Position numbers and translations under genes: made by a program
Shown: piece by piece, positions 2,401 through 64,000 of the stretch
How the letters are laid out: every line of letters begins with the position of its first letter
How positions within the stretch are numbered: the stretch's first letter is position 1
Origin: Bacilli bacterium
GTDB taxonomy: Bacteria > Bacillota_I > Bacilli_A > ML615J-28 > CAG-698
Direction: 5' to 3'
Assembly (NCBI GenBank): GCA_028691515.1
Contig: JAQUZE010000003.1
Coordinates: 64,399-128,398 of the forward strand
Length of the DNA stretch: 64,000 bases
Notes under the pieces: model-generated
Databases searched by the model: none
The model's input: the letters and a program-made list of their open reading frames with translations, nothing else
Told to the model about the DNA's origin: nothing

Positions 2401-3642
2401 TTATTCATAATTAGATATTTTTTTATAAACAAGACTAATAGAATTTTTCAATTTATAATTATTAGTTATAATAATATCAGCATGTTTTAAATATAAATCA
2501 TATCTTTCATTTTTTATTTTTAATAAATCATCATAATTTTTTATTAATGGTCTTTTCCCCGGTCTTAAAATCATTTTATCATAATCTCTATTTAAAAAAA
2601 CTAATAATCCATTTGCCTTTAAAAGTTCCATAGACTCATCATTTAAAACTACTCCGCCGCCTGTATCAATAATTTGATTTGTTTTTTGAGAATATTCTTT
2701 AATTAAGCTAACTTCTTTCTTGCGAAAATAATCTTCACCCTTTTTAGCAAAAATTTCGCTAACAGACATTTTTTCACTAGCTACTAGAATTTTATCGATT
2801 GAAACTAATTTTTTATTAGTTTTTTTAGCAATATATTTACCAACAGTAGTCTTTCCCGATGCCGGCAAACCTATAAACACTATATTTCTTAGTGTATCTT
2901 GTAAATCTTTGTAAATCTTCAAAGCTTTTGCATTATCTATTTTAATATTTTGAAATAATTCTGACGCTTTTTTAGCTTGAAAAACAAGCATCATCAAGCC
3001 ATTTATATATTTTATTCCTTTTTCTTTTGCATCAAGCAATAACTTCGTCCTTAACGGATTATAAATTACATCAATTACAACTTCAAGATTATTAAATATA
3101 CTAATATCAATAACACTATTTCTATAATCTGGACTTACACCAACAGGAGTAGTATTGATAATAATATTTGGTTGCAATTTTTCTGTTATTTTACTATATG
3201 TAATATCTCCTTTTAAAGAATCTCTAGATGCAATAATAATACTACTTGCATATAAATCTTCCAACACTGCTTTAACAGTTCTAGATGTAGCACCTGATCC
3301 TAATATTAAACAATTTTTATTATATACTACAACCTTATTTTCTTGCAATAAAGTCTTAAAGCCATAATAATCAGTATTATATCCATATAATTTTCCTGAT
3401 TTATTAATAATCGTATTACAAGAATTAGTTTTAATTACTTCTTCCGATAAATTATCAAGATATTTAATTACTATTTCTTTATAAGGAATAGTAACATTGA
3501 TTCCTTTAAAGTCTTTTTCTGTAATAAAAGTTTTAAAATTATCTTCTAAAATATCATAGAACTTATACTCATATCCCCCAAACTTACTATGTACATCTGG
3601 CGAATATGAATAACTAATATTTTTTCCTAATAATCCATACAC
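2401..3642 (-). CDS. Bifunctional shikimate dehydrogenase (AroE, N-terminal) / shikimate kinase (AroK, C-terminal) fusion
   Basis: 413 aa. N-terminal AroE motifs (LLGKNISYSYSPDVH...). C-terminal P-loop kinase (IVFIGLPASGKTTVGK). Confidence 0.85.
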   Translation of the reverse strand: MYGLLGKNISYSYSPDVHSKFGGYEYKFYDILEDNFKTFITEKDFKGINVTIPYKEIVIKYLDNLSEEVIKTNSCNTIINKSGKLYGYNTDYYGFKTLLQENKVVVYNKNCLILGSGATSRTVKAVLEDLYASSIIIASRDSLKGDITYSKITEKLQPNIIINTTPVGVSPDYRNSVIDISIFNNLEVVIDVIYNPLRTKLLLDAKEKGIKYINGLMMLVFQAKKASELFQNIKIDNAKALKIYKDLQDTLRNIVFIGLPASGKTTVGKYIAKKTNKKLVSIDKILVASEKMSVSEIFAKKGEDYFRKKEVSLIKEYSQKTNQIIDTGGGVVLNDESMELLKANGLLVFLNRDYDKMILRPGKRPLIKNYDDLLKIKNERYDLYLKHADIIITNNYKLKNSISLVYKKISNYE

Positions 3643-4730
3643 TATTTATCCATCCAATCTTGACCATAAACATTCATATACAAATCAACTAAACCAAAGG
3701 CCAACATACTATTTATGATTGGAAGTGCACGTGGAACAATACAAGAATCATGTCTACCAGTTAATTGTAATATCTCTTCTTGCAAATTTTTTAGATTAAT
3801 TGTACTTATAGGTTTTCCAATAGATACTGGTGCTTTAATAGCTGTATTAACTAATATTGGCATACCATTAGTTAATCCACCATTAATTCCACCCATATGA
3901 TTATGATTAGTTTTAATTTTTCCATCATAATATAAATTATCTAAAGTATTACTACCAAATTCCTTAGTAATACTAAATCCATCTCCAAAGCTAACACCTT
4001 TTACAGACGGAATTGAAAACAATAAATGACTAAATACTGATTCGATACTATTAAAGAATGGTTCACCAATCCCAACATCAACTCCCAAAATTGCAGTTTC
4101 AACAACACCACCAACAGAATCTTTTGCTTCTTTTGCATCTTCTATAACCTTAATCATAGAATCTTTTACTTCTTTTAAATAAACTGGAAAATCTTTAGTT
4201 ATAAAATTCTTATAATTACTAATTTCTAATTCATTCATAGATATATCATTAACTGTATGAATAGATTTGATGTGACTTATTATTTCAATATTCTTATTAT
4301 TTAATATTTTTTCACAAATCGCTCCCAAAATAACAATTAAAACTGTAATTCTTCCACTAAAATGACCACTTCCACGATAATCTTGATATCCATTATATTT
4401 TACATAAGCAGGATAGTCAGCATGACCACTCCTTGGAAGAAATTTATTTTTTTCATAATCTTTAGAATCAATATCTTCATTATAAACCAAGAATGTAAGT
4501 GGGGCTCCTGTTGTAAAACCATTAAAAAAACCACTTATTATCTCATAAGAATCTTTTTCTTTTCTCTTAGTTCCTAAAATATTCGGTCTTCTTTCTGCTA
4601 ATTTCTGATTAATAAAATCTAAATCTAATTTAATCCCCGCCTTTAATCCATTAATAGTTAATCCCATAATTTTATTATGGGATTCACCAAATATAGATAC
4701 TATTAAATTTTTACCAAATATTGATGCCAT
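3642..4730 (-). CDS. aroC: Chorismate synthase
   Basis: 362 aa. N-terminus MASIFGKNLIVSIFGESHN... and conserved RHDSCIVPRA region. Confidence 0.9.
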   Translation of the reverse strand: MASIFGKNLIVSIFGESHNKIMGLTINGLKAGIKLDLDFINQKLAERRPNILGTKRKEKDSYEIISGFFNGFTTGAPLTFLVYNEDIDSKDYEKNKFLPRSGHADYPAYVKYNGYQDYRGSGHFSGRITVLIVILGAICEKILNNKNIEIISHIKSIHTVNDISMNELEISNYKNFITKDFPVYLKEVKDSMIKVIEDAKEAKDSVGGVVETAILGVDVGIGEPFFNSIESVFSHLLFSIPSVKGVSFGDGFSITKEFGSNTLDNLYYDGKIKTNHNHMGGINGGLTNGMPILVNTAIKAPVSIGKPISTINLKNLQEEILQLTGRHDSCIVPRALPIINSMLAFGLVDLYMNVYGQDWMDK

Positions 4731-4736
4731 ATTAAA

Positions 4737-5750
4737 TCACTTTCCTAAAAGATCTACTAATTCTTCTGCAGTAACTTGTCTAATATGATATTTATTCATA
4801 TTTTCTAAGAAAACAGCTTCAATTTTGCCATTTTTTGCTTTTTTATCATTTTGAAGATATGTTAAAAGCATATTTTTATCAATATTAGCTATAAGAGTAT
4901 CGACATCTAGCCCCATTCTTATAATTATATTCTTAACTTTATTTTGTAATTCTTTATCCTCAATCATATATATTAAACCAATAGCAATAGATTCACCATG
5001 AAGTAGTTTATCAAGGTGATAAGAGCTCTCTATACCATGTCCTAAAGTATGACCAAAATTTAAAATATGACGAATTCCAAAATCTTTTTCATCTTTTTCA
5101 ACAATTTTTTTCTTTGCAAGAATTGATCTTTCTATAACTTCTAAAATATTTTTTGAATATATTCCTTCTTCAAAAAAATTAAATAATTTTTTATCAAGTA
5201 ATAATCCCATCTTTAAAGCTTCAAACATTCCATTAATATAATGTCTTCTTGGAAGACTATCTAAAACTTCTGGGTCAATTAAAACTAAATCTGGAGCATA
5301 AAAAGATCCGACAACATTCTTTATATTGCTGAAATTAAGGGCATTTTTACTCCCTACTGCACTATCCATCATTGACATTGTAGTTGTAGGGATCATAACT
5401 AACTTACATCCTCGTTTAAATACAGACGCTGTAAATCCTGTTAAATCTCCAATAACTCCACCACCCAAAGCAATTATTGTATCGCTTCTACTAAATTTTT
5501 TATTCACAAGGTAATCTAAAATTTGTGTAAATGTTTCTATAGATTTACTGCTTTCTCCGGCCTTAACTTTATACGTAAAAACTTCAGGAAATTGCCTTAC
5601 AATGTTATTTAATTTAACATTATCAATATTTTCATCATAAATTATCAAAGTCTTCTCTAAGACATTTAAATAATCTTTTAAATGCCCCAAAATTGCTTTT
5701 TCAAAGATGATATTATATTTATTATTTTTTGAATTAATTACTATTTCCAT
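4737..5750 (-). CDS. aroB: 3-dehydroquinate synthase
   Basis: 337 aa. GGGVIGDLTGFTA glycine-rich NAD motif and metal-binding His region (HTLGHGIE). Confidence 0.9.
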   Translation of the reverse strand: MEIVINSKNNKYNIIFEKAILGHLKDYLNVLEKTLIIYDENIDNVKLNNIVRQFPEVFTYKVKAGESSKSIETFTQILDYLVNKKFSRSDTIIALGGGVIGDLTGFTASVFKRGCKLVMIPTTTMSMMDSAVGSKNALNFSNIKNVVGSFYAPDLVLIDPEVLDSLPRRHYINGMFEALKMGLLLDKKLFNFFEEGIYSKNILEVIERSILAKKKIVEKDEKDFGIRHILNFGHTLGHGIESSYHLDKLLHGESIAIGLIYMIEDKELQNKVKNIIIRMGLDVDTLIANIDKNMLLTYLQNDKKAKNGKIEAVFLENMNKYHIRQVTAEELVDLLGK

Positions 5751-42386: not shown

Positions 42387-44216
42387 TTATTTCTTTTGTT
42401 TTTTTGCAAGATAAACAATAAATGGTCCTATTTTAACCATATCATCTTTAGTAATCTGTCTATCTTTAAATTCTTCAAAGATGGCTCTGATTTTATCATT
42501 ATAAGATTCTGCTTTTTTATCTTCAACAACATTTATATCAATATCTGTATCCTGTGAAACAGGAATGTACTCAACCCAATGAACGGGAATTGTATGTAAT
42601 TTCCCATCATTACCCATTTTATTAATATAATCAATTCTATTAATCATATCATAACCATATGCAGTTACTTTGACTGTGTCACAATAATCACCGCTTTTAA
42701 CAGTTGATGTTTTTAAAATATTTCTTGTTTTTGAAAGAGGATGTTTAAACTCTCTTTCATTCATCAAGTTAGCTAATTGTTCATGTTCATAAAATGAAAC
42801 ATAACTATTATATTTATCTTTATAAATATACTCATGTGGTTTTTGATGTTGATAAAGTGGAATTGATAAAATCGGCGCAAACCCAAAATAAATATATTTA
42901 AAAAAATTATTATTATAATCCAAAAACTTCTTTTCTGTTTCATCAATATTATAATCTCTAAAATATTCAGGATTAATATTTAAATCTATATTTTTAAGGT
43001 GTTCTGGTAATACAATATTAATCATATTATGTTTTTTAAAATCAAAATTATCTCCAAAACCAATTACTTTATCTTTCATCAACTGTAAAAGTTGTTTCTG
43101 AGCTAATGCAGTAAATAACAATCTAAATTGAACTTCATTGTTTCTATTACTGCCCCCAAATAAAACTTCAAATTCAGTATTACCCATTAATGTATAATTA
43201 TCACCAAATTTTAACCCTTTTTCTGCCTTTTTTTGTAATTTTTTTGTTGTCTTTTTAACATGACGTTCTATTTGTTTTTCTTCCATATGTTCTGCATCTG
43301 AATCTTCTCTAGAAAATATCAAATCTGGAGCTGCTTCATTAGCATAAACAATATATGGAGATTCATAATAATAAGGACATGGTTTAGTTACTTCAGCAGT
43401 TAATGTTTGCGTATGATGCCTTGTAGTTAATTGGCCCTTTGAATTTGTACCCACAGTTGTCCAATGAATAGTAATAGAACCAGTATATGTTTTAGTCCCT
43501 AATTGATGCACTAAATCCCTAGCAATATAAAAAGGATTACCATTAATATCTCCAGATTGAACATACAAAGCTGATCTATTTAAATCTGGTGTATCATCTA
43601 ATTTAAATTTATTTACCATATAATCTAATCTTTTACTATCAAACATTCTATCAAGCTTAATCAAAGGGATAGTCTTTTTAAAAATAGAAGTACTCATTCC
43701 ATATGTAAACAATTTATTTAATGGCTCCATCTGGCTCCACGCTAAATCTAAGGTTTCTTTATATTCTTGATCTAGTTTTCCTTTTTCATCGCTAAGTCTA
43801 AGTAACTTCGGATTTAACTTTTTTAAAATAATAAATAAGAAAACGGGAAATGAAATAGCACTAATTCCTATTAATATAGCCTGAATATAATGAAATCCTT
43901 TGCTTACCCATAAATAAATTGATACTCCAAACAAAATTACAAAGATTACCATTAAAAATATCAAAAAACCTTTTAAAAATTTATTATTATTAATCTTTTT
44001 CTGAACTGAATTTCTTCTTTTATCCAAAGACACTAATTCTTTATTTGCAAGTCTGTTTGCTTCTTTATCTAATTTTGACTTTTTAACCAATTCTTCAAAA
44101 AAATCAACAACATTTTTGTGATGTTCTTTTTTAAAAATTTTATCATATGCAATCAGTGGCTCATAAATAAACTCACCATCATATAAATTTTCAGGCATAA
44201 TATCCCTCTTTTCCAA
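42387..44216 (-). CDS. Large membrane-anchored hypothetical protein (2 TM near the N-terminus). Possible LemA-associated partner.
   Basis: 609 aa, no confidently recognised domain. Immediately upstream of LemA in the same orientation. Confidence 0.45.
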   Translation of the reverse strand: MEKRDIMPENLYDGEFIYEPLIAYDKIFKKEHHKNVVDFFEELVKKSKLDKEANRLANKELVSLDKRRNSVQKKINNNKFLKGFLIFLMVIFVILFGVSIYLWVSKGFHYIQAILIGISAISFPVFLFIILKKLNPKLLRLSDEKGKLDQEYKETLDLAWSQMEPLNKLFTYGMSTSIFKKTIPLIKLDRMFDSKRLDYMVNKFKLDDTPDLNRSALYVQSGDINGNPFYIARDLVHQLGTKTYTGSITIHWTTVGTNSKGQLTTRHHTQTLTAEVTKPCPYYYESPYIVYANEAAPDLIFSREDSDAEHMEEKQIERHVKKTTKKLQKKAEKGLKFGDNYTLMGNTEFEVLFGGSNRNNEVQFRLLFTALAQKQLLQLMKDKVIGFGDNFDFKKHNMINIVLPEHLKNIDLNINPEYFRDYNIDETEKKFLDYNNNFFKYIYFGFAPILSIPLYQHQKPHEYIYKDKYNSYVSFYEHEQLANLMNEREFKHPLSKTRNILKTSTVKSGDYCDTVKVTAYGYDMINRIDYINKMGNDGKLHTIPVHWVEYIPVSQDTDIDINVVEDKKAESYNDKIRAIFEEFKDRQITKDDMVKIGPFIVYLAKKQKK

Positions 44217-58889: not shown

Positions 58890-59492
58890 ATGATATCATA
58901 CATTGATAGAAAAAACAAGAAATACATTTATAATATTAATCCAAGCGAACAAGAATTAATGAAGATGATTTGTCCAAAGTGTAACTCTCAAGGACAGTTT
59001 TATCGTCATGGGTTTTATGTTCGCTTTTTAGTTCTTTTTTCTTGCGTTGCTAACATATTTATAAAAGACAAAATTGAAGTTACTGTATTAAGAGTTAGAT
59101 GTACTAACTGTAATAAAACTCATGCAATTTTGGATTTCAACATAATCCCCTACTGTTCATATTCAGTATCATTTATTTTTGAGGTTCTCTCGTGTTACTT
59201 TATTGATCAAAATAAGATCGAAGACATCTGCATTGAATTCGATATTTCAGAATACACTTTTAATTTATTCGTAGATCATTACAATAAAGAGATGTTAGAT
59301 TTAAAAGCTTATTATAAGAATATCGGTCTTGATGCTCTTTTTGAAGAGTTAGTAAACGATGAAATAGATTCTTTTTTAGTAAACTTTTTTAAATTGACTA
59401 AGAGATATCTTTTTCACTTTGTTTCATCTGGTACTCTATCTATATTCAAGAATCGCTCTTTCCACATAACTTTCAAAATCTACCTTGTGTAA
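58890..59492 (+). mobile_element. Truncated ISL3-family-like transposase (N-terminal zinc-finger plus HTH part only, no DDE domain). The last ~20 codons read antisense through a foreign GC-rich fragment.
   Basis: CPKCNS...RVRCTNCNKTHAILDFNIIPYC resembles the zf-ISL3 pattern (C-x2-C...RYRC-x-NC-GKTFTE). 200 aa, roughly half the length of full ISL3 transposases. Confidence 0.45.
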
Positions 59493-59585
59493 GTCATCAG
59501 AGCCCCATTTATTAAGAGTACCGACAACATCACGGTCGCCACTATCACTTGAGTAATCTGCGCTAATGTAAACCCGTTTGCTCAT
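59436..59585 (-). pseudogene. 5' fragment (49 codons) of a foreign, GC-richer gene whose product begins like a TIR domain (MSKRVYISADYSSDSGDRDVVGTL...). Perfect Shine-Dalgarno, truncated by an in-frame TAG.
   Basis: ttaggaggttgtattATG. Codons AGC/CGG/GGC/GAC/CGT are unlike host usage. The ORF ends at 59436 where the ISL3-like sequence begins. Confidence 0.45.
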
Positions 59586-59698
59586 AATACAACCTCCTAA
59601 ATAATTGACTTTATAATATTTATTAAAATTCTAACATGAAATTTATTTTTTGTCAAATTTTTACAAATATTTATATCTTAAGTTTTCATTTATTTACA

Positions 59699-59774
59699 CT
59701 TTCGTGTTTTTGTTGACCTTTCGTGTTTTAGTTAGGCTTTCGTGTTTTAGTTAGGCTTTCGTGTTTTAGTTGAT
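59699..59774. repeat. Four tandem 19-bp direct repeats (iteron-like): CTTTCGTGTTTTAGTTAGG x2, flanked by slightly divergent copies
   Basis: Units at 59699-59717, 59718-59736, 59737-59755 and 59756-59774. Confidence 0.85.
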
Positions 59775-59914
59775 TTAAGTATAAAGAAAAAGCCTAGTAA
59801 ATGCTCTTGGTAGAACACCCACTAGGCTAAAATACGAAACGAAAAAAGGGAATTTATACCTATTTTCTCAATAAAAAAAGCTTGATAACATTGTATCAAA
59901 CCTATCGTTCTAAT

Positions 59915-59993
59915 ATGGGTTTGTAGAACTATATTGATACAATTACGCACCCCTATCAAAATCTACGCACCCCTGTTTTTTTTACGCACCCCT
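59915..59993. repeat. att-like region, copy A: 40-bp sequence ATGGGTTTGTAGAACTATATTGATACAATTACGCACCCC followed by two more TACGCACCCCT repeats at ~20-bp spacing. Preceded by inverted TTGTATCAA/TTGATACAA half-sites.
   Basis: Near-identical 38-bp copy at 63511-63548. TACGCACCC at 59944, 59964 and 59983. Confidence 0.7.
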
Positions 59994-60107
59994 AAATGGT
60001 GGCTTAACAGAGCATTCTTATTTGATGTATTCTTCTAATATTGATTTTATCACAGAAATATTATTATTTTCAAGTAGATCTATTAATTCTCCCAATAAAC
60101 ATCAACA

Positions 60108-60851
60108 TTTATATTGTTATTTTTTCAACATCAATTCCATATATTAAATTCTCAAACAAATCTATGTAGGGCAACGACTTTCTCTTATCTAGATATATTA
60201 CTTTTCTAAGGTTTCTAATTAAGTTTTCATCATTTGTTTTGCTAAAATCATACTCGATACAAAACCCTCTATTTCCATCAGCATATGCACCTCACATAGA
60301 TGGTATGTCGTAGCTATCACTCATAGAAAAGATTTTCATTTTTTTTCTTAATGTACTATTAAACTTTGCAAGGGGTTCATCCTTTTCTGCAAGTTCAATT
60401 TCTTTCTTTTCCATCAAAGATTTCATTTACTGTAAATTTAAAAAAATTTATTAATATTTTCATTGTTTTCACCGTTACTAATCAAATATTCTTTTATTTC
60501 GTTATCTGACTTTTTAAGAATCTTAATCATTTCTAACAATTTATCATTAGGAACTTTTGATAAGGAATCTTTAATATTTTTATTAGGAACAAAAGAATTT
60601 ACAATACTTTGAACACTCTCAAGTTCATGTTCATCATAATATTGTTTAAATTCCATAAAATCTTGTTCTTTACCATAATAGATGATTGAATCAGATTTAT
60701 CATTTAACGACAGGACATCAGCAAACCATAAATATCCATCTTTTAATGATTCTAAATAATATGGGAAAACTTCACTTTTAATTGATCTATATTTATATAG
60801 TTTCATTCGTTCACCTACTTTATTATAAATTATTTGATTTTCTATGAACAT
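60108..60851 (-). pseudogene. DUF2971-family gene disrupted by a -1 frameshift (near 60430) and an in-frame TGA (60292-60294) at the conserved Trp of the ...MWxxYAD..GFCIEYD motif
   Basis: N-terminal ORF KLYKYRS...YLWFADVLSLNDKSD (DUF2971 N-motif). Downstream frame reads ...DIPSM[TGA]GAYADGNRGFCIEYDF. Confidence 0.55.
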
Positions 60852-61018
60852 AATAACTACGATTTATATTGTATGACTTTCAAGAAGTTATAATATTTAT
60901 ATCAATTTTTTTCATACTCCTTAACCAATCTTCTCCATAGTTAGATAAATCCATTACTCAATAATTATTGTACTTGAATATCCAAATAATGTAAATAACT
61001 TTTAATTTCGAACAAAAA

Positions 61019-61048
61019 AGCGAATCAATATTTCCTAATTGATTCGCT
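61019..61048 (-). terminator. Strong hairpin (11-bp stem) with T-run on the minus strand
   Basis: aaaaagcgaatcaatatttcctaattgattcgct. Confidence 0.5.
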
Positions 61049-61364
61049 TTACTCTATTTTCTACTATTTACTTATATTTTCTAACTAACAATACTAAAAT
61101 ACTATCTTCATATCGCCGGTAACATACATTATCGGGTGTATGAAAAACAAAAATATAGAAATTCATTTCCAATTCTGATTTGTTGGATCATACTATTCTT
61201 TTATTATTATATAAGAAAAAGCTCTTAAGAGTCATGTAGACTGACAAGGGCATTATTTATAAATTTAAAACTTGCGACACGTTCGTTTCTTCTTTTATCG
61301 CACTACCCAATTCAAACTATAAAACATAAACGAACACAGGCCCAGTTACGGGCCTAATTTTTTG

Positions 61365-61739
61365 TTATTTAACTTTCCAAGCTGTATAAACACTTCTGTA
61401 GCTACAATCCCAAGTATCTAGGATAACTCCATCAACTACACAAGTTATGTGTCCTGCCATTTTTAATATAAAGGTACCTCTTGGATGTAGCTCTGTAAAA
61501 TCAGATCCTTTTAGTCGAGGTTCACCTTTTATAGTTTTGGAAATGAGTCTTGGAAAAGCTTCAAAATATTTATATAAAAACTTTGTTTCTTTATAAGTTC
61601 CAAAGCCTAACTCTTTTTTTGCTTGGTTTAGTTTTTTTCTACATTCTAAGTAATCAATATCTAATACTGTTGAAATTGCTCTAACTACACAATCAGTTGT
61701 TTTTAATCATTTTGGATGTCTGTTATATTCTTTAAACAT
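61365..61739 (-). pseudogene. 124-codon ORF of unknown function with an in-frame TGA at codon 11 (MFKEYNRHPK[TGA]LKTTDCVVRAIS...). Start overlaps the upstream stop (TAATG).
   Basis: ATG at 61739, TGA at 61709-61707, TAA at 61367-61365. A GC hairpin plus T-run (ggcccagttacgggcc, 61334-61360) follows. Confidence 0.4.
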
Positions 61740-61741
61740 TA

Positions 61742-62168
61742 TTCAGATCAACCTTCGTTTAACCATACAACTAATTCTTTAACTAAGTTAGTTTCAAATA
61801 ATGGCTTTTCAAAGTTATTCTTTTTTCCAAATACTGTGTACTTCTTTTCGTTCCAACAACAATTTATTTGAATTGTAAATAATACGTCACCAGTAACAAT
61901 ATCAGCAAATCTAAAATCATCATAAAGCGGACCGTTTAATGGACAGTTATTTTTAAACCTAACATAAGTTGTATCTAGGTTTATCTTTCCAACATCTTTT
62001 TATTTGTTTTACTATGTTACCCATTTTTGTAGTTTTGTTTGCAAGACTTGTATCCTTACAAAACCAATCATACCATCCAGCTTCAATTTGTGTTTCTACA
62101 TCCTTAGATGAATACATTTCATTATTAAAGTTTAATATCCAAGATCTCAAATTTGTTTCTTTTGCCAT
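61742..62168 (-). pseudogene. ~140-codon gene of unknown function split by a frameshift (MAKETNLRSWILNF...KQIKR / ...DTTYVRFKNNCPLNGPLYDDF...VVWLNEG), ending in TGA closely followed by TAA
   Basis: RBS agagga 8 nt upstream of the ATG at 62168. Two frames needed. Overlaps the 61959..62237 track ORF. Confidence 0.4.
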
Positions 62169-62685
62169 TATCAATAATCCTCTTTTCTGCACAATATTTT
62201 GCATGTACATATTCGCTCTAAAGAAGACTAATAGCAAGTTATATTTTTACATATGTGAGGTATTTTAATATTAGAAAAAAAAAGGTTTCCCTCTTAAATT
62301 AAAACTATATTCTTGTATTTTCTTTAAATATGTTGGCCCTACAAATCGGAACATATCGCTCTATTCATATTGAAGTTTATCTTTTACTAAATGGATAAGT
62401 ATACCATCAAGATATCTAGTTTTTATTGTTTAACATCATTAGGTAATAACACTACACACTAATCATAATAAAATATTATCCTGAAGAATTATGTACCATT
62501 TTACATATAATCTGCAAGGTAAGATTTCAATGTATCAAACGACAATAAAAGCGCTCATCAGCACTTATATTCAATATTTATAAAGTTTTGATTATTATTA
62601 TTCACAAAAAAATCTCATCAAATAATTAAATAAAAGTTATCCATTTAAATTACAGTATGATTCCTTTATAAAATGTTTTTGAATA

Positions 62686-63015
62686 TTATAATGAGCTTAA
62701 AGCTGCTATAACTATAATTACTAGCCAAAAAGAAAATGATCCTACTGATAACCATAATCCTATTTTAGATCGTCCGATGTACATATTTTTTTTATCATTA
62801 ATTCCTACTATTCCCGTAATTATACCTACTATAGAACCAATAAAAATGAGTGGATAAAATCCCAAAGACCCAAAAACCACCGAAATTGTTGCTAACCCTT
62901 TCCCTCTTGGTTGAATAATCGCTTGAACGTTTTCTTGGTTTACTGCGTGACCACAAGATAAGCAAACTGAAGCCCCCTGATTAATTTCTTTACCGCAATT
63001 CGGACAAAAATTCAT
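62686..63015 (-). CDS. Zinc-ribbon membrane protein (N-terminal CxxC...CxxH ribbon, two C-terminal TM helices; DUF4190-like)
   Basis: MNFCPNCGKEINQGASVCLSCGHAV followed by glycine-rich TM segments. Confidence 0.5.
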   Translation of the reverse strand: MNFCPNCGKEINQGASVCLSCGHAVNQENVQAIIQPRGKGLATISVVFGSLGFYPLIFIGSIVGIITGIVGINDKKNMYIGRSKIGLWLSVGSFSFWLVIIVIAALSSL

Positions 63016-63510
63016 AAAATATCCTCCTAAATATTTACCTATTAATTAAACTATTGTTTTGATAGCTAATTATAAGAGCCATTAATTTCACTATTAAATA
63101 ATAACTAAATTATATCATTTTTATAATGATTTTTTAAACTAAATTTTGAGAATTATCATTTTCATATAGTTTTTTCCATAATTTTAAGCTTTTTTATATT
63201 CCATAAAATTTTATAATTACTGCTTGTTAATCCTGAAATTAATGTATCTATAAATTACTATTTCGTAGATCTATCGCTACTATAAAACATTATATCATAA
63301 TTAATTAATTATAACTACATAATTTCCAAAATATAGTTATATTTTAACAACTCCGGCTTGTGGGTATCTAATGGGGGAAATGAATTTTAAAGCATAAAAT
63401 CAGTTATTTTATACAACTTTTACCAAATTATATTTTTATATTTTGTACTAGAGTAAAATAAAATGCTATCAACGTACATCTAACGTCAATAGCATAGTAA
63501 TATCTAATCA

Positions 63511-63609
63511 ATGGGTTTGTAGAACCATATTGATACAATTACGCACCCTTGTGTTATTTTACGCACCCTAGATGGCAAATCACGCACCCTTGACTAGTTT
63601 TACGCACCC
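63511..63609. repeat. att-like region, copy B: 38-bp near-identical copy of the 59915 sequence followed by four [T]ACGCACCC repeats at 20-22-bp spacing, ~210 bp from the integrase gene end
   Basis: ATGGGTTTGTAGAACCATATTGATACAATTACGCACCC. Repeats at 63540, 63560, 63581 and 63601. Confidence 0.7.
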
Positions 63610-63818
63610 CTAGTTTATTATATTTTCACAGGGTATAGTTTTCCCAGAAACATACGCTATTACTTAATCTTCTTTCTGTAATCCATCATTCATCATTTAT
63701 AGATAGATTGACATGCTTAACTTTGTTAGGACGAATAATTTAATACAATACGTACCCCTTTAAAAAAGTTCGTCCACCTCAAGACATAAACATAATAATT
63801 ACTATATGTAATTTAAAT

Positions 63819-64000
63819 CTAACTTAGAAATTTTCTGTGTGCTAACTTTACATTATTTTGTTCTACCATAGCATATTGCAGAGTAGTATCAACTTTTGTA
63901 TGACCTAACATGTGTTGGACTTGTTCAATTGGCATTCCTTTATCTATTGCTTTAGTTGCCAGTGTTCTTCTAAACTTATGGGGATGAACTTTATCTATAT
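63819..64000 (-). CDS. Tyrosine site-specific integrase/recombinase, C-terminal catalytic end (partial; continues beyond the window)
   Basis: Minus-strand translation ...IDKVHPHKFRRTLATKAIDKGMPIEQVQHMLGHTKVDTTLQYAMVEQNNVKLAHRKFLS*. HxxR, LGH and catalytic Tyr (LQY) motifs of tyrosine recombinases. Confidence 0.8.
   Translation of the reverse strand, partial: IDKVHPHKFRRTLATKAIDKGMPIEQVQHMLGHTKVDTTLQYAMVEQNNVKLAHRKFLS

Follow-up and report, generated by a model that had tools for sequence, protein, structure and literature searches.

A stretch of 64,000 nucleotides of contig JAQUZE010000003.1 (GenBank assembly GCA_028691515.1, positions 64,399 to 128,398 of the forward strand), in the following called the window, carries a 3.6-kb islet whose genes are interrupted by three in-frame TGA codons. 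A preliminary description, drawn from the letters of the window only, had placed each of these codons where tryptophan is expected and had offered two readings, nonsense mutations in a decaying island or cargo acquired from a donor or phage in which TGA is read as Trp (genetic code 4). All affected genes lie on the minus strand; the gene of 142 codons is named gene C and that of 124 codons gene B. The features of the islet are listed by their coordinates in the window.

59973 to 63510: the islet, a 3.6-kb remnant with four genes (zinc-ribbon gene, gene C, gene B, and DUF2971 remnant)
62686 to 63015, minus strand: zinc-ribbon membrane protein gene, 109 amino acids, intact, the first gene of the islet (Pfam Zn_Ribbon_1, E = 1.4e-7)
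61739 to 62168, minus strand: gene C pseudogene, AcrIIA11-family homologue of 142 codons with a +A frameshift and a TGA
61748 to 61750, minus strand: TGA in gene C, replacing the Trp of NEGW, which is nearly invariant; a TGG>TGA change common to the islet lineage
61365 to 61739, minus strand: gene B pseudogene, 124 codons, putative small papain-like-fold protein with a TGA at codon 11
61707 to 61709, minus strand: codon 11 of gene B, a former GGA (Gly) turned into TGA by a G>T transversion; the invariant Cys17 lies downstream
60109 to 60851, minus strand: DUF2971 pseudogene, likely start MKLYKYRS at 60806, four lesions
60292 to 60294, minus strand: TGA in the DUF2971 gene, replacing the invariant Trp of the SMWGxYADGN motif through a recent TGG>TGA transition

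Stop codons and frameshifts in the islet genes

The three TGA codons were seen as reported, on the minus strand at 60294-60292, 61709-61707, and 61750-61748. Around the first of them the DUF2971 gene reads ...DIPSM[TGA]GAYADGNRGFCIEYDF, and the TGA column is W in 20 of 20 homologues (SMWGTYADGN). The family was assigned by a match to Pfam PF11185 that passed the gathering threshold (25 bits, cut-off 22); PF11185 is present in all full-length homologues, and the conserved MW-x-x-YA motif aligns. This gene had been described as free of frameshifts with a single TGA, which overlooked an in-frame TAA (60440-60438) and a 1-bp deletion at about 60429/60430. Approximately 80 C-terminal residues are gone in addition: homologues are 303-321 amino acids long and the window copy ends after about 232 residues, so the 3' end has been deleted too. 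The TAA column is Glu in 7 of the 20 homologues and mixed in the others, and since those with Glu are the closest full-length homologues, the TAA likely arose by GAA>TAA. Metagenome contigs of the same islet (L numbers) were obtained by exact-protein look-up. In two of them, L013 and L016 (99.2-99.4% identical), minus-strand base 60292 is G where the window has A, giving TGG, and an additional C at about 60429 rejoins both halves of the gene in one frame, with the in-frame TAA alone remaining.

Intact homologues of gene B are 124-125 amino acids long and up to 92% identical. At codon 11 the homologues carry G in 117 of 120 cases, E in two, and T in one, with no W among them, and the window reads CCA AAA TGA TTA where an intact sister lineage (L002-L007) reads CCT AAA GGA TTA. 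Since this TGA stands in a glycine column, the expectation of Trp is not borne out at one of the three codons: the alignment of intact homologues proposed in the preliminary description returned Trp for the DUF2971 gene and gene C but Gly for gene B. In the gene B family C17 and D108 are invariant and H97 nearly invariant; judged by conservation and not by spatial arrangement, they are candidates for the Cys/His(/Asp) catalytic set of a papain-like fold, for which a Foldseek search that included the PDB gave no significant match. The whole window lineage also carries F67S in gene B, at a position that is F in 119 of 120 homologues. A reading of TGA as Gly (code 25) was tried and rejected; it suits codon 11 of gene B, fails at the two Trp columns, and leaves the other lesions unrepaired.

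Gene C ends in ...LNEG[TGA]SE*, with the TGA three codons ahead of the natural TAA stop, which overlaps the start of gene B (TAATG). The TGA column is W in 117 of 119 homologues. The window lineage (window, L001, L013, L014, L016, and L022) reads GGT TGA TCT GAA TAA at this end, and the sister lineage reads GGT TGG TCT GAA TAA. Intact TGG copies in close relatives, which the preliminary description had associated with simple pseudogenization, were therefore found for both Trp codons, in L013 and L016 for DUF2971 and in L002-L007 for gene C. The frameshift in gene C had been correctly called; it is caused by an extra A in the A-run 62001-61997 that is found only in the window and L012 and is missing from L001 and L013-L016. 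Intact homologues are 142-144 amino acids long. A further change carried by the whole window lineage, W70R, affects a residue that is W in 115 of 119 homologues. Two other kinds of recoding were discarded. Programmed frameshifting at the two shifts was rejected because the indels are simply missing in close relatives, and selenocysteine because no homologue carries Cys at any of the three TGA columns, a SECIS (selenocysteine insertion sequence) element not having been searched for.

AcrIIA11 is an anti-CRISPR described by Forsberg et al. 2019 (PMC6739867), with the crystal structure 9utm. The model of the gene C family, with a predicted local distance difference test (pLDDT) of 90.6, matched this structure in Foldseek against the PDB (E = 7e-14, template modelling (TM) score 0.83, 39% identity), and the family profile matched it in hmmsearch with E = 2e-33 over 138 positions. 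Judged by sequence profile and modelled fold, gene C is an AcrIIA11-family anti-CRISPR homologue, and the proteins of its subfamily are putative Cas9 inhibitors. The family criterion of PMC6739867 asks for at least 35% identity over at least 75% of 182 amino acids; the 39% identity of gene C extends over about 137 residues or about 75% of 182, so that its coverage is borderline. Gene C proteins differ from AcrIIA11 in being 142 instead of 182 amino acids long and in lacking its C-terminal tail, and in the window the gene survives as a pseudogene. Like AcrIIA11, the gene C family occurs on mobile elements and is spread widely over Firmicutes-related lineages. Its homologues (L026-L105) are common and often multi-copy per genome in metagenome-assembled genomes (MAGs) of Acholeplasmataceae, Izemoplasmatales, and Erysipelotrichaceae, and also occur on a plasmid of 'Tenericutes bacterium MO-XQ'. 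A scan of the genome collection with gene C found no near-identical copy, the best match being 73% identical; either the islet is missing from the representative of the host species or that representative is not in the collection.

Related copies of the islet and selection on its genes

Contig L012 is 100% identical to window positions 64000-60000 and reaches 2.85 kb past the window. Identity to the window was 99.2-100% for L013-L021 and 97.7% for L001, and the sister lineage L002-L007 is 88-92% identical at the nucleotide level. JGI, ENA, and Logan samples yielded 8-10 independent assemblies in which the three TGAs, the TAA, and the 1-bp deletion are found again. Further lesions are found in single copies or small groups of copies: a TGG>TGA at W110 of gene B in L016, a 1-bp deletion in the DUF2971 gene of L019, Y114F in gene B of L019 and L020 (a column that is Y in 118 of 120 homologues), W32C in gene C of L001, and a TGG>TAG at W105 of gene C in L022-L025. 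For the latter position an extra TGA had been considered from the protein cluster members P0259 and P0264, and it was rejected as the DNA of L022 reads TAG. Homology of L022 to the window stops inside gene B at 61404 (L022:5364 onward), and other cargo follows. In L022-L025 the cargo past this cut comprises a SHOCT protein, a helix-turn-helix (HTH) protein, an AIPR abortive-infection protein, a 732-amino-acid open reading frame (ORF), and an HTH protein with a D12 methyltransferase. The islet locus is hypervariable.

Some deposited proteins appear to contradict the stop codons. P0121 is 98% identical to gene C and apparently intact with NEGW, yet its contig L001 (1435-2237) carries the same TGAs, and a flag in the look-up marks that this DNA does not translate to the deposited protein. 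P0246, which corresponds to gene B of the window with W11 and occurs on 22 contigs, reflects the same code-4 translation. P0121, P0246, P0247, and P0256 all come from gene calling of pseudogenes under a code-4 model, which produces full-length catalogue proteins with spurious Trp at TGA sites, and homology matches that 'confirm' Trp can therefore be circular.

The ratio of non-synonymous to synonymous rates (ω, Nei-Gojobori) between the window lineage and the intact copy L003 was 0.17 for genes B and C together, so most of the divergence between them accrued under constraint. Among the variants within the TGA-bearing lineage, 3 were synonymous, 8 non-synonymous, and 2 nonsense, accompanied by 3 frameshift indels. 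Under ω = 0.17, the probability that at least 10 of 13 substitutions are non-synonymous or nonsense is 0.008. Constraint thus looks relaxed within the lineage, where the changes look neutral (ω ~1); the numbers are small and the direction is clear.

Host code, islet borders, and neighbouring elements

Code 11 is used by the host, an uncultured 'Bacilli bacterium' of low G+C content with Acholeplasma and Izemoplasma among its relatives. The G+C content of the window is 27%. Proteins identical to its TldD and zinc-ribbon proteins are annotated in NCBI 'Bacilli bacterium' MAGs, and the relatives of islet proteins are named Acholeplasmatales, Izemoplasmatales, Erysipelotrichaceae, Liberiplasma, and Peloplasma. 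A protein encoded at 42387-44216 on the minus strand belongs to the MAG1210 family (NCBIfam NF046000, E = 1e-210), which is named after a Mycoplasma agalactiae protein and fits a Mycoplasmatota-related host.

The statement that the host never uses TGA within its long ORFs was borne out. ORFs of at least 100 amino acids under table 11 cover 90.5% of positions 1-58600, compared with 20.5% of the islet, and the 49 long ORFs contain 119 TGG codons and end in TAA, TAG, and TGA in 38, 6, and 5 cases, respectively. TldD ends in TGA exactly at the final position of its NCBIfam profile (443/443), and AroB ends in TGA after a complete DHQS_C domain, just before a complete AroC; TGA terminating both complete proteins means that the host uses it as a stop. 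At 3642-5750 on the minus strand, aroC lies in frame two codons past the aroB TGA and appeared in the stop-codon scan as a 364-codon 'readthrough'. This was rejected as a recoding event, being plain adjacency of two complete enzymes. ARAGORN found no tRNA gene, and hence no UCA anticodon, in the 64-kb window or L012.

The same usage was found beyond the host genes. L012 continues past the window with the intact integrase of the adjacent element (Phage_integrase, E = 4e-33), a 174-amino-acid ORF, and RhuM (330 amino acids); these three contain 7 TGG codons and no in-frame TGA, and all are intact. In genomes, 64 full-length homologues of gene C were compared, all belonging to lineages with names such as Acholeplasmataceae, Izemoplasmatales, Erysipelotrichaceae, and 'Tenericutes bacterium'; they contain 470 TGG codons, no in-frame TGA, and no in-frame stop. 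Within the three affected window genes, TGG and TGA occur in a ratio of 8:3.

The islet is bounded by two direct repeats of 58 nucleotides, 86% identical according to repeat search and junction alignment, between which no recombinase ORF was found. The border features are listed below.

59915 to 59972: left direct repeat of 58 nucleotides, with three TACGCACCCCT motifs up to 59994; probably a leftover attachment (att) end of a degraded element
63511 to 63568: right direct repeat of 58 nucleotides, with four TACGCACCC motifs up to 63612; end of the neighbouring integrase-bearing element
63819 to 64000, minus strand: 3' end of a tyrosine integrase gene of 329 amino acids, part of the adjacent element, running off the window

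The motif TACGCACCC(C/T) is arrayed at both borders, three times at 59941-59994 and four times at 63537-63612, and at the same junction of L022 (3150-3290) a variant motif, GGGGTGTAGTAA, occurs on the opposite strand. From their sequence, the arrays may be arm-type binding sites for the recombinases of two related elements. The islet end (CATTGATTAGATATTAC...) is preceded in L001 by the 3' end of a tRNA-Arg(TCG) gene, in the window by the repeat-bearing end of the integrase element, and in L022 by the variant repeat array. The zinc-ribbon gene is syntenic in L001, L012, and L022. Just outside the left direct repeat, at 59689-59783, a 19-nucleotide unit (TTAGTTAGGCTTTCGTGTT-like) forms four to five tandem copies. 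Further to the left (58890-59585), a 200-amino-acid DUF6431 ORF on the plus strand overlaps a 49-amino-acid ORF on the minus strand (59436-59585, no Pfam match); both look like further gene fragments.

Remnants of the cis-mobilizable element (CIME) type, and integrative elements that accumulate in tandem at tRNA genes, are known for the ICESt1/ICESt3 family. The islet resembles them in having no integrase, att-like direct repeats at its borders, an adjoining tyrosine-integrase element, and, in L001, an end that abuts the 3' end of tRNA-Arg(TCG). It differs in that the window holds no tRNA gene and the repeats are only 86% identical. An older integrative element at the tRNA-Arg site may have lost its recombinase and the 3' end of the DUF2971 gene, and a newer integrase-bearing element may then have integrated beside the islet, which we infer to be a deleted element in a tandem array.

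Explanations for the TGA codons

With high probability each TGA arose independently, as an ordinary nonsense mutation in a pseudogene of an islet in decay, and none reflects an alternative code. The ancestral codons and the other lesions are directly observed, and the genes presumably lack function. Three of the four islet genes would be pseudogenes at different stages of decay, in which independent G>A or G>T mutations within the lineage would have produced TGG>TGA in gene C, TGG>TGA in DUF2971, and GGA>TGA in gene B. These TGAs would end translation like other nonsense codons, save for background leakiness. Nonsense mutation in a decaying island, as one of the two readings first proposed, is thus supported, although one of the three changes is not the TGG>TGA that had been assumed. 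The islet genes resemble bacterial pseudogenes in degrading mobile-element remnants in their nonsense mutations biased from GC to AT, homopolymer-associated indels, 3' truncation, strain-specific lesions, and ω rising to ~1. No essential difference was found, the marginal TGA excess being the only oddity.

Several observations weigh against ordinary decay. The estimate of ω within the lineage is based on just 13 substitutions. Single-step nonsense changes in the repaired genes would be expected to give TGA in 25-31% of cases, depending on transition weight, and the nonsense codons comprise 3 TGA and 1 TAA in the window (p = 0.05-0.09) and 4 TGA, 1 TAA, and 1 TAG in the lineage (p = 0.04-0.08). 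The excess is marginal and unconvincing because the region was flagged for its TGAs, which makes these tests post hoc; if it is real, the simplest reason is that UGA, the leakiest stop according to the literature as summarised in PMC7918605, does the least harm as a first hit. In every sampled member of the lineage, and in many independent metagenomes (22 contigs for P0246), genes B and C carried their TGA alleles, which have therefore persisted for some time. Gene C without its frameshift may be partly functional, as the TGA costs only the last three residues.

The persistence of these alleles, the marginal TGA excess, and the small cost to gene C would also be explained if the alleles were still functional. 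In Firmicutes UGA is leaky, being read by tRNA-Trp at a few per cent; the genes would then be expressed at a low and possibly selected level, and TGA would be the nonsense codon that is tolerated. Readthrough of this kind has a precedent in catA86-TGA of B. subtilis, for which the summary in PMC7918605 gives 6% with insertion of Trp. This explanation is nevertheless improbable, as readthrough of gene B would substitute Trp for a near-invariant Gly that shortly precedes the putative catalytic Cys, changes within the lineage look neutral, invariant residues are altered (Y114F, W32C, W70R, and F67S), and frameshifts, TAA, and TAG pile up in the same genes. We consider it very unlikely that the TGA alleles were kept with the ordinary tRNA-Trp of this host reading UGA appreciably as Trp, which would make TGG>TGA near-neutral and let it accumulate preferentially. 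If it were true, UGA codon capture would be caught live at its first step in the islet, within a lineage that uses code 11 and is sister to the code-4 Mollicutes. An origin of the cargo in a donor or phage translating TGA as Trp, the other reading of the preliminary description, would make the TGAs inherited sense codons. Two of the three stand at invariant Trp columns in a low-GC relative of the Mollicutes, as would suit the code 4 of Mycoplasmatales, Entomoplasmatales, and TGA-recoded phages; homologues are concentrated in Mycoplasmatota-related lineages, and there are known cases of phages that have recoded TGA while their hosts use the standard code (bioRxiv 10.1101/2021.08.26.457843). In contrast to code 4, the third TGA stands at a Gly column and derives from GGA, and the nearest relatives have TGG at the other two, which makes TGA the derived state. 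Reading TGA as Trp would moreover not rescue the genes, since the TAA, the 1-bp deletion, the +1 frameshift, and the 3' truncation remain unrepaired. In the host and in the neighbouring element Trp is encoded by TGG and TGA serves as a stop, TGG outnumbers TGA even in the affected genes and is the only form in the 64 genomic homologues, and neither the window nor L012 yielded a suppressor tRNA. An origin in code 4 is refuted by the criteria that the preliminary description itself had set, and is scarcely credible. Sequencing or assembly errors in the MAG are just as hard to credit as the source of the stops and frameshifts. Both frameshifts lie in or next to homopolymers (A5 at 62001-61997 and T7 near 60430), and the +A of gene C is confined to the window and L012, possibly one and the same assembly, but the three TGAs, the TAA, and the 1-bp deletion recur in independent assemblies, and over its first 58 kb the window has intact host genes.

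The islet would then represent routine gene decay, which has little import for the question of the genetic code, and the idea of an alternative code can be dropped. It also shows an AcrIIA11-family gene and a small putative papain-like-fold gene as a tightly coupled cassette, a pair that is widespread and often multi-copy in mobile elements of Acholeplasma- and Izemoplasma-like bacteria.

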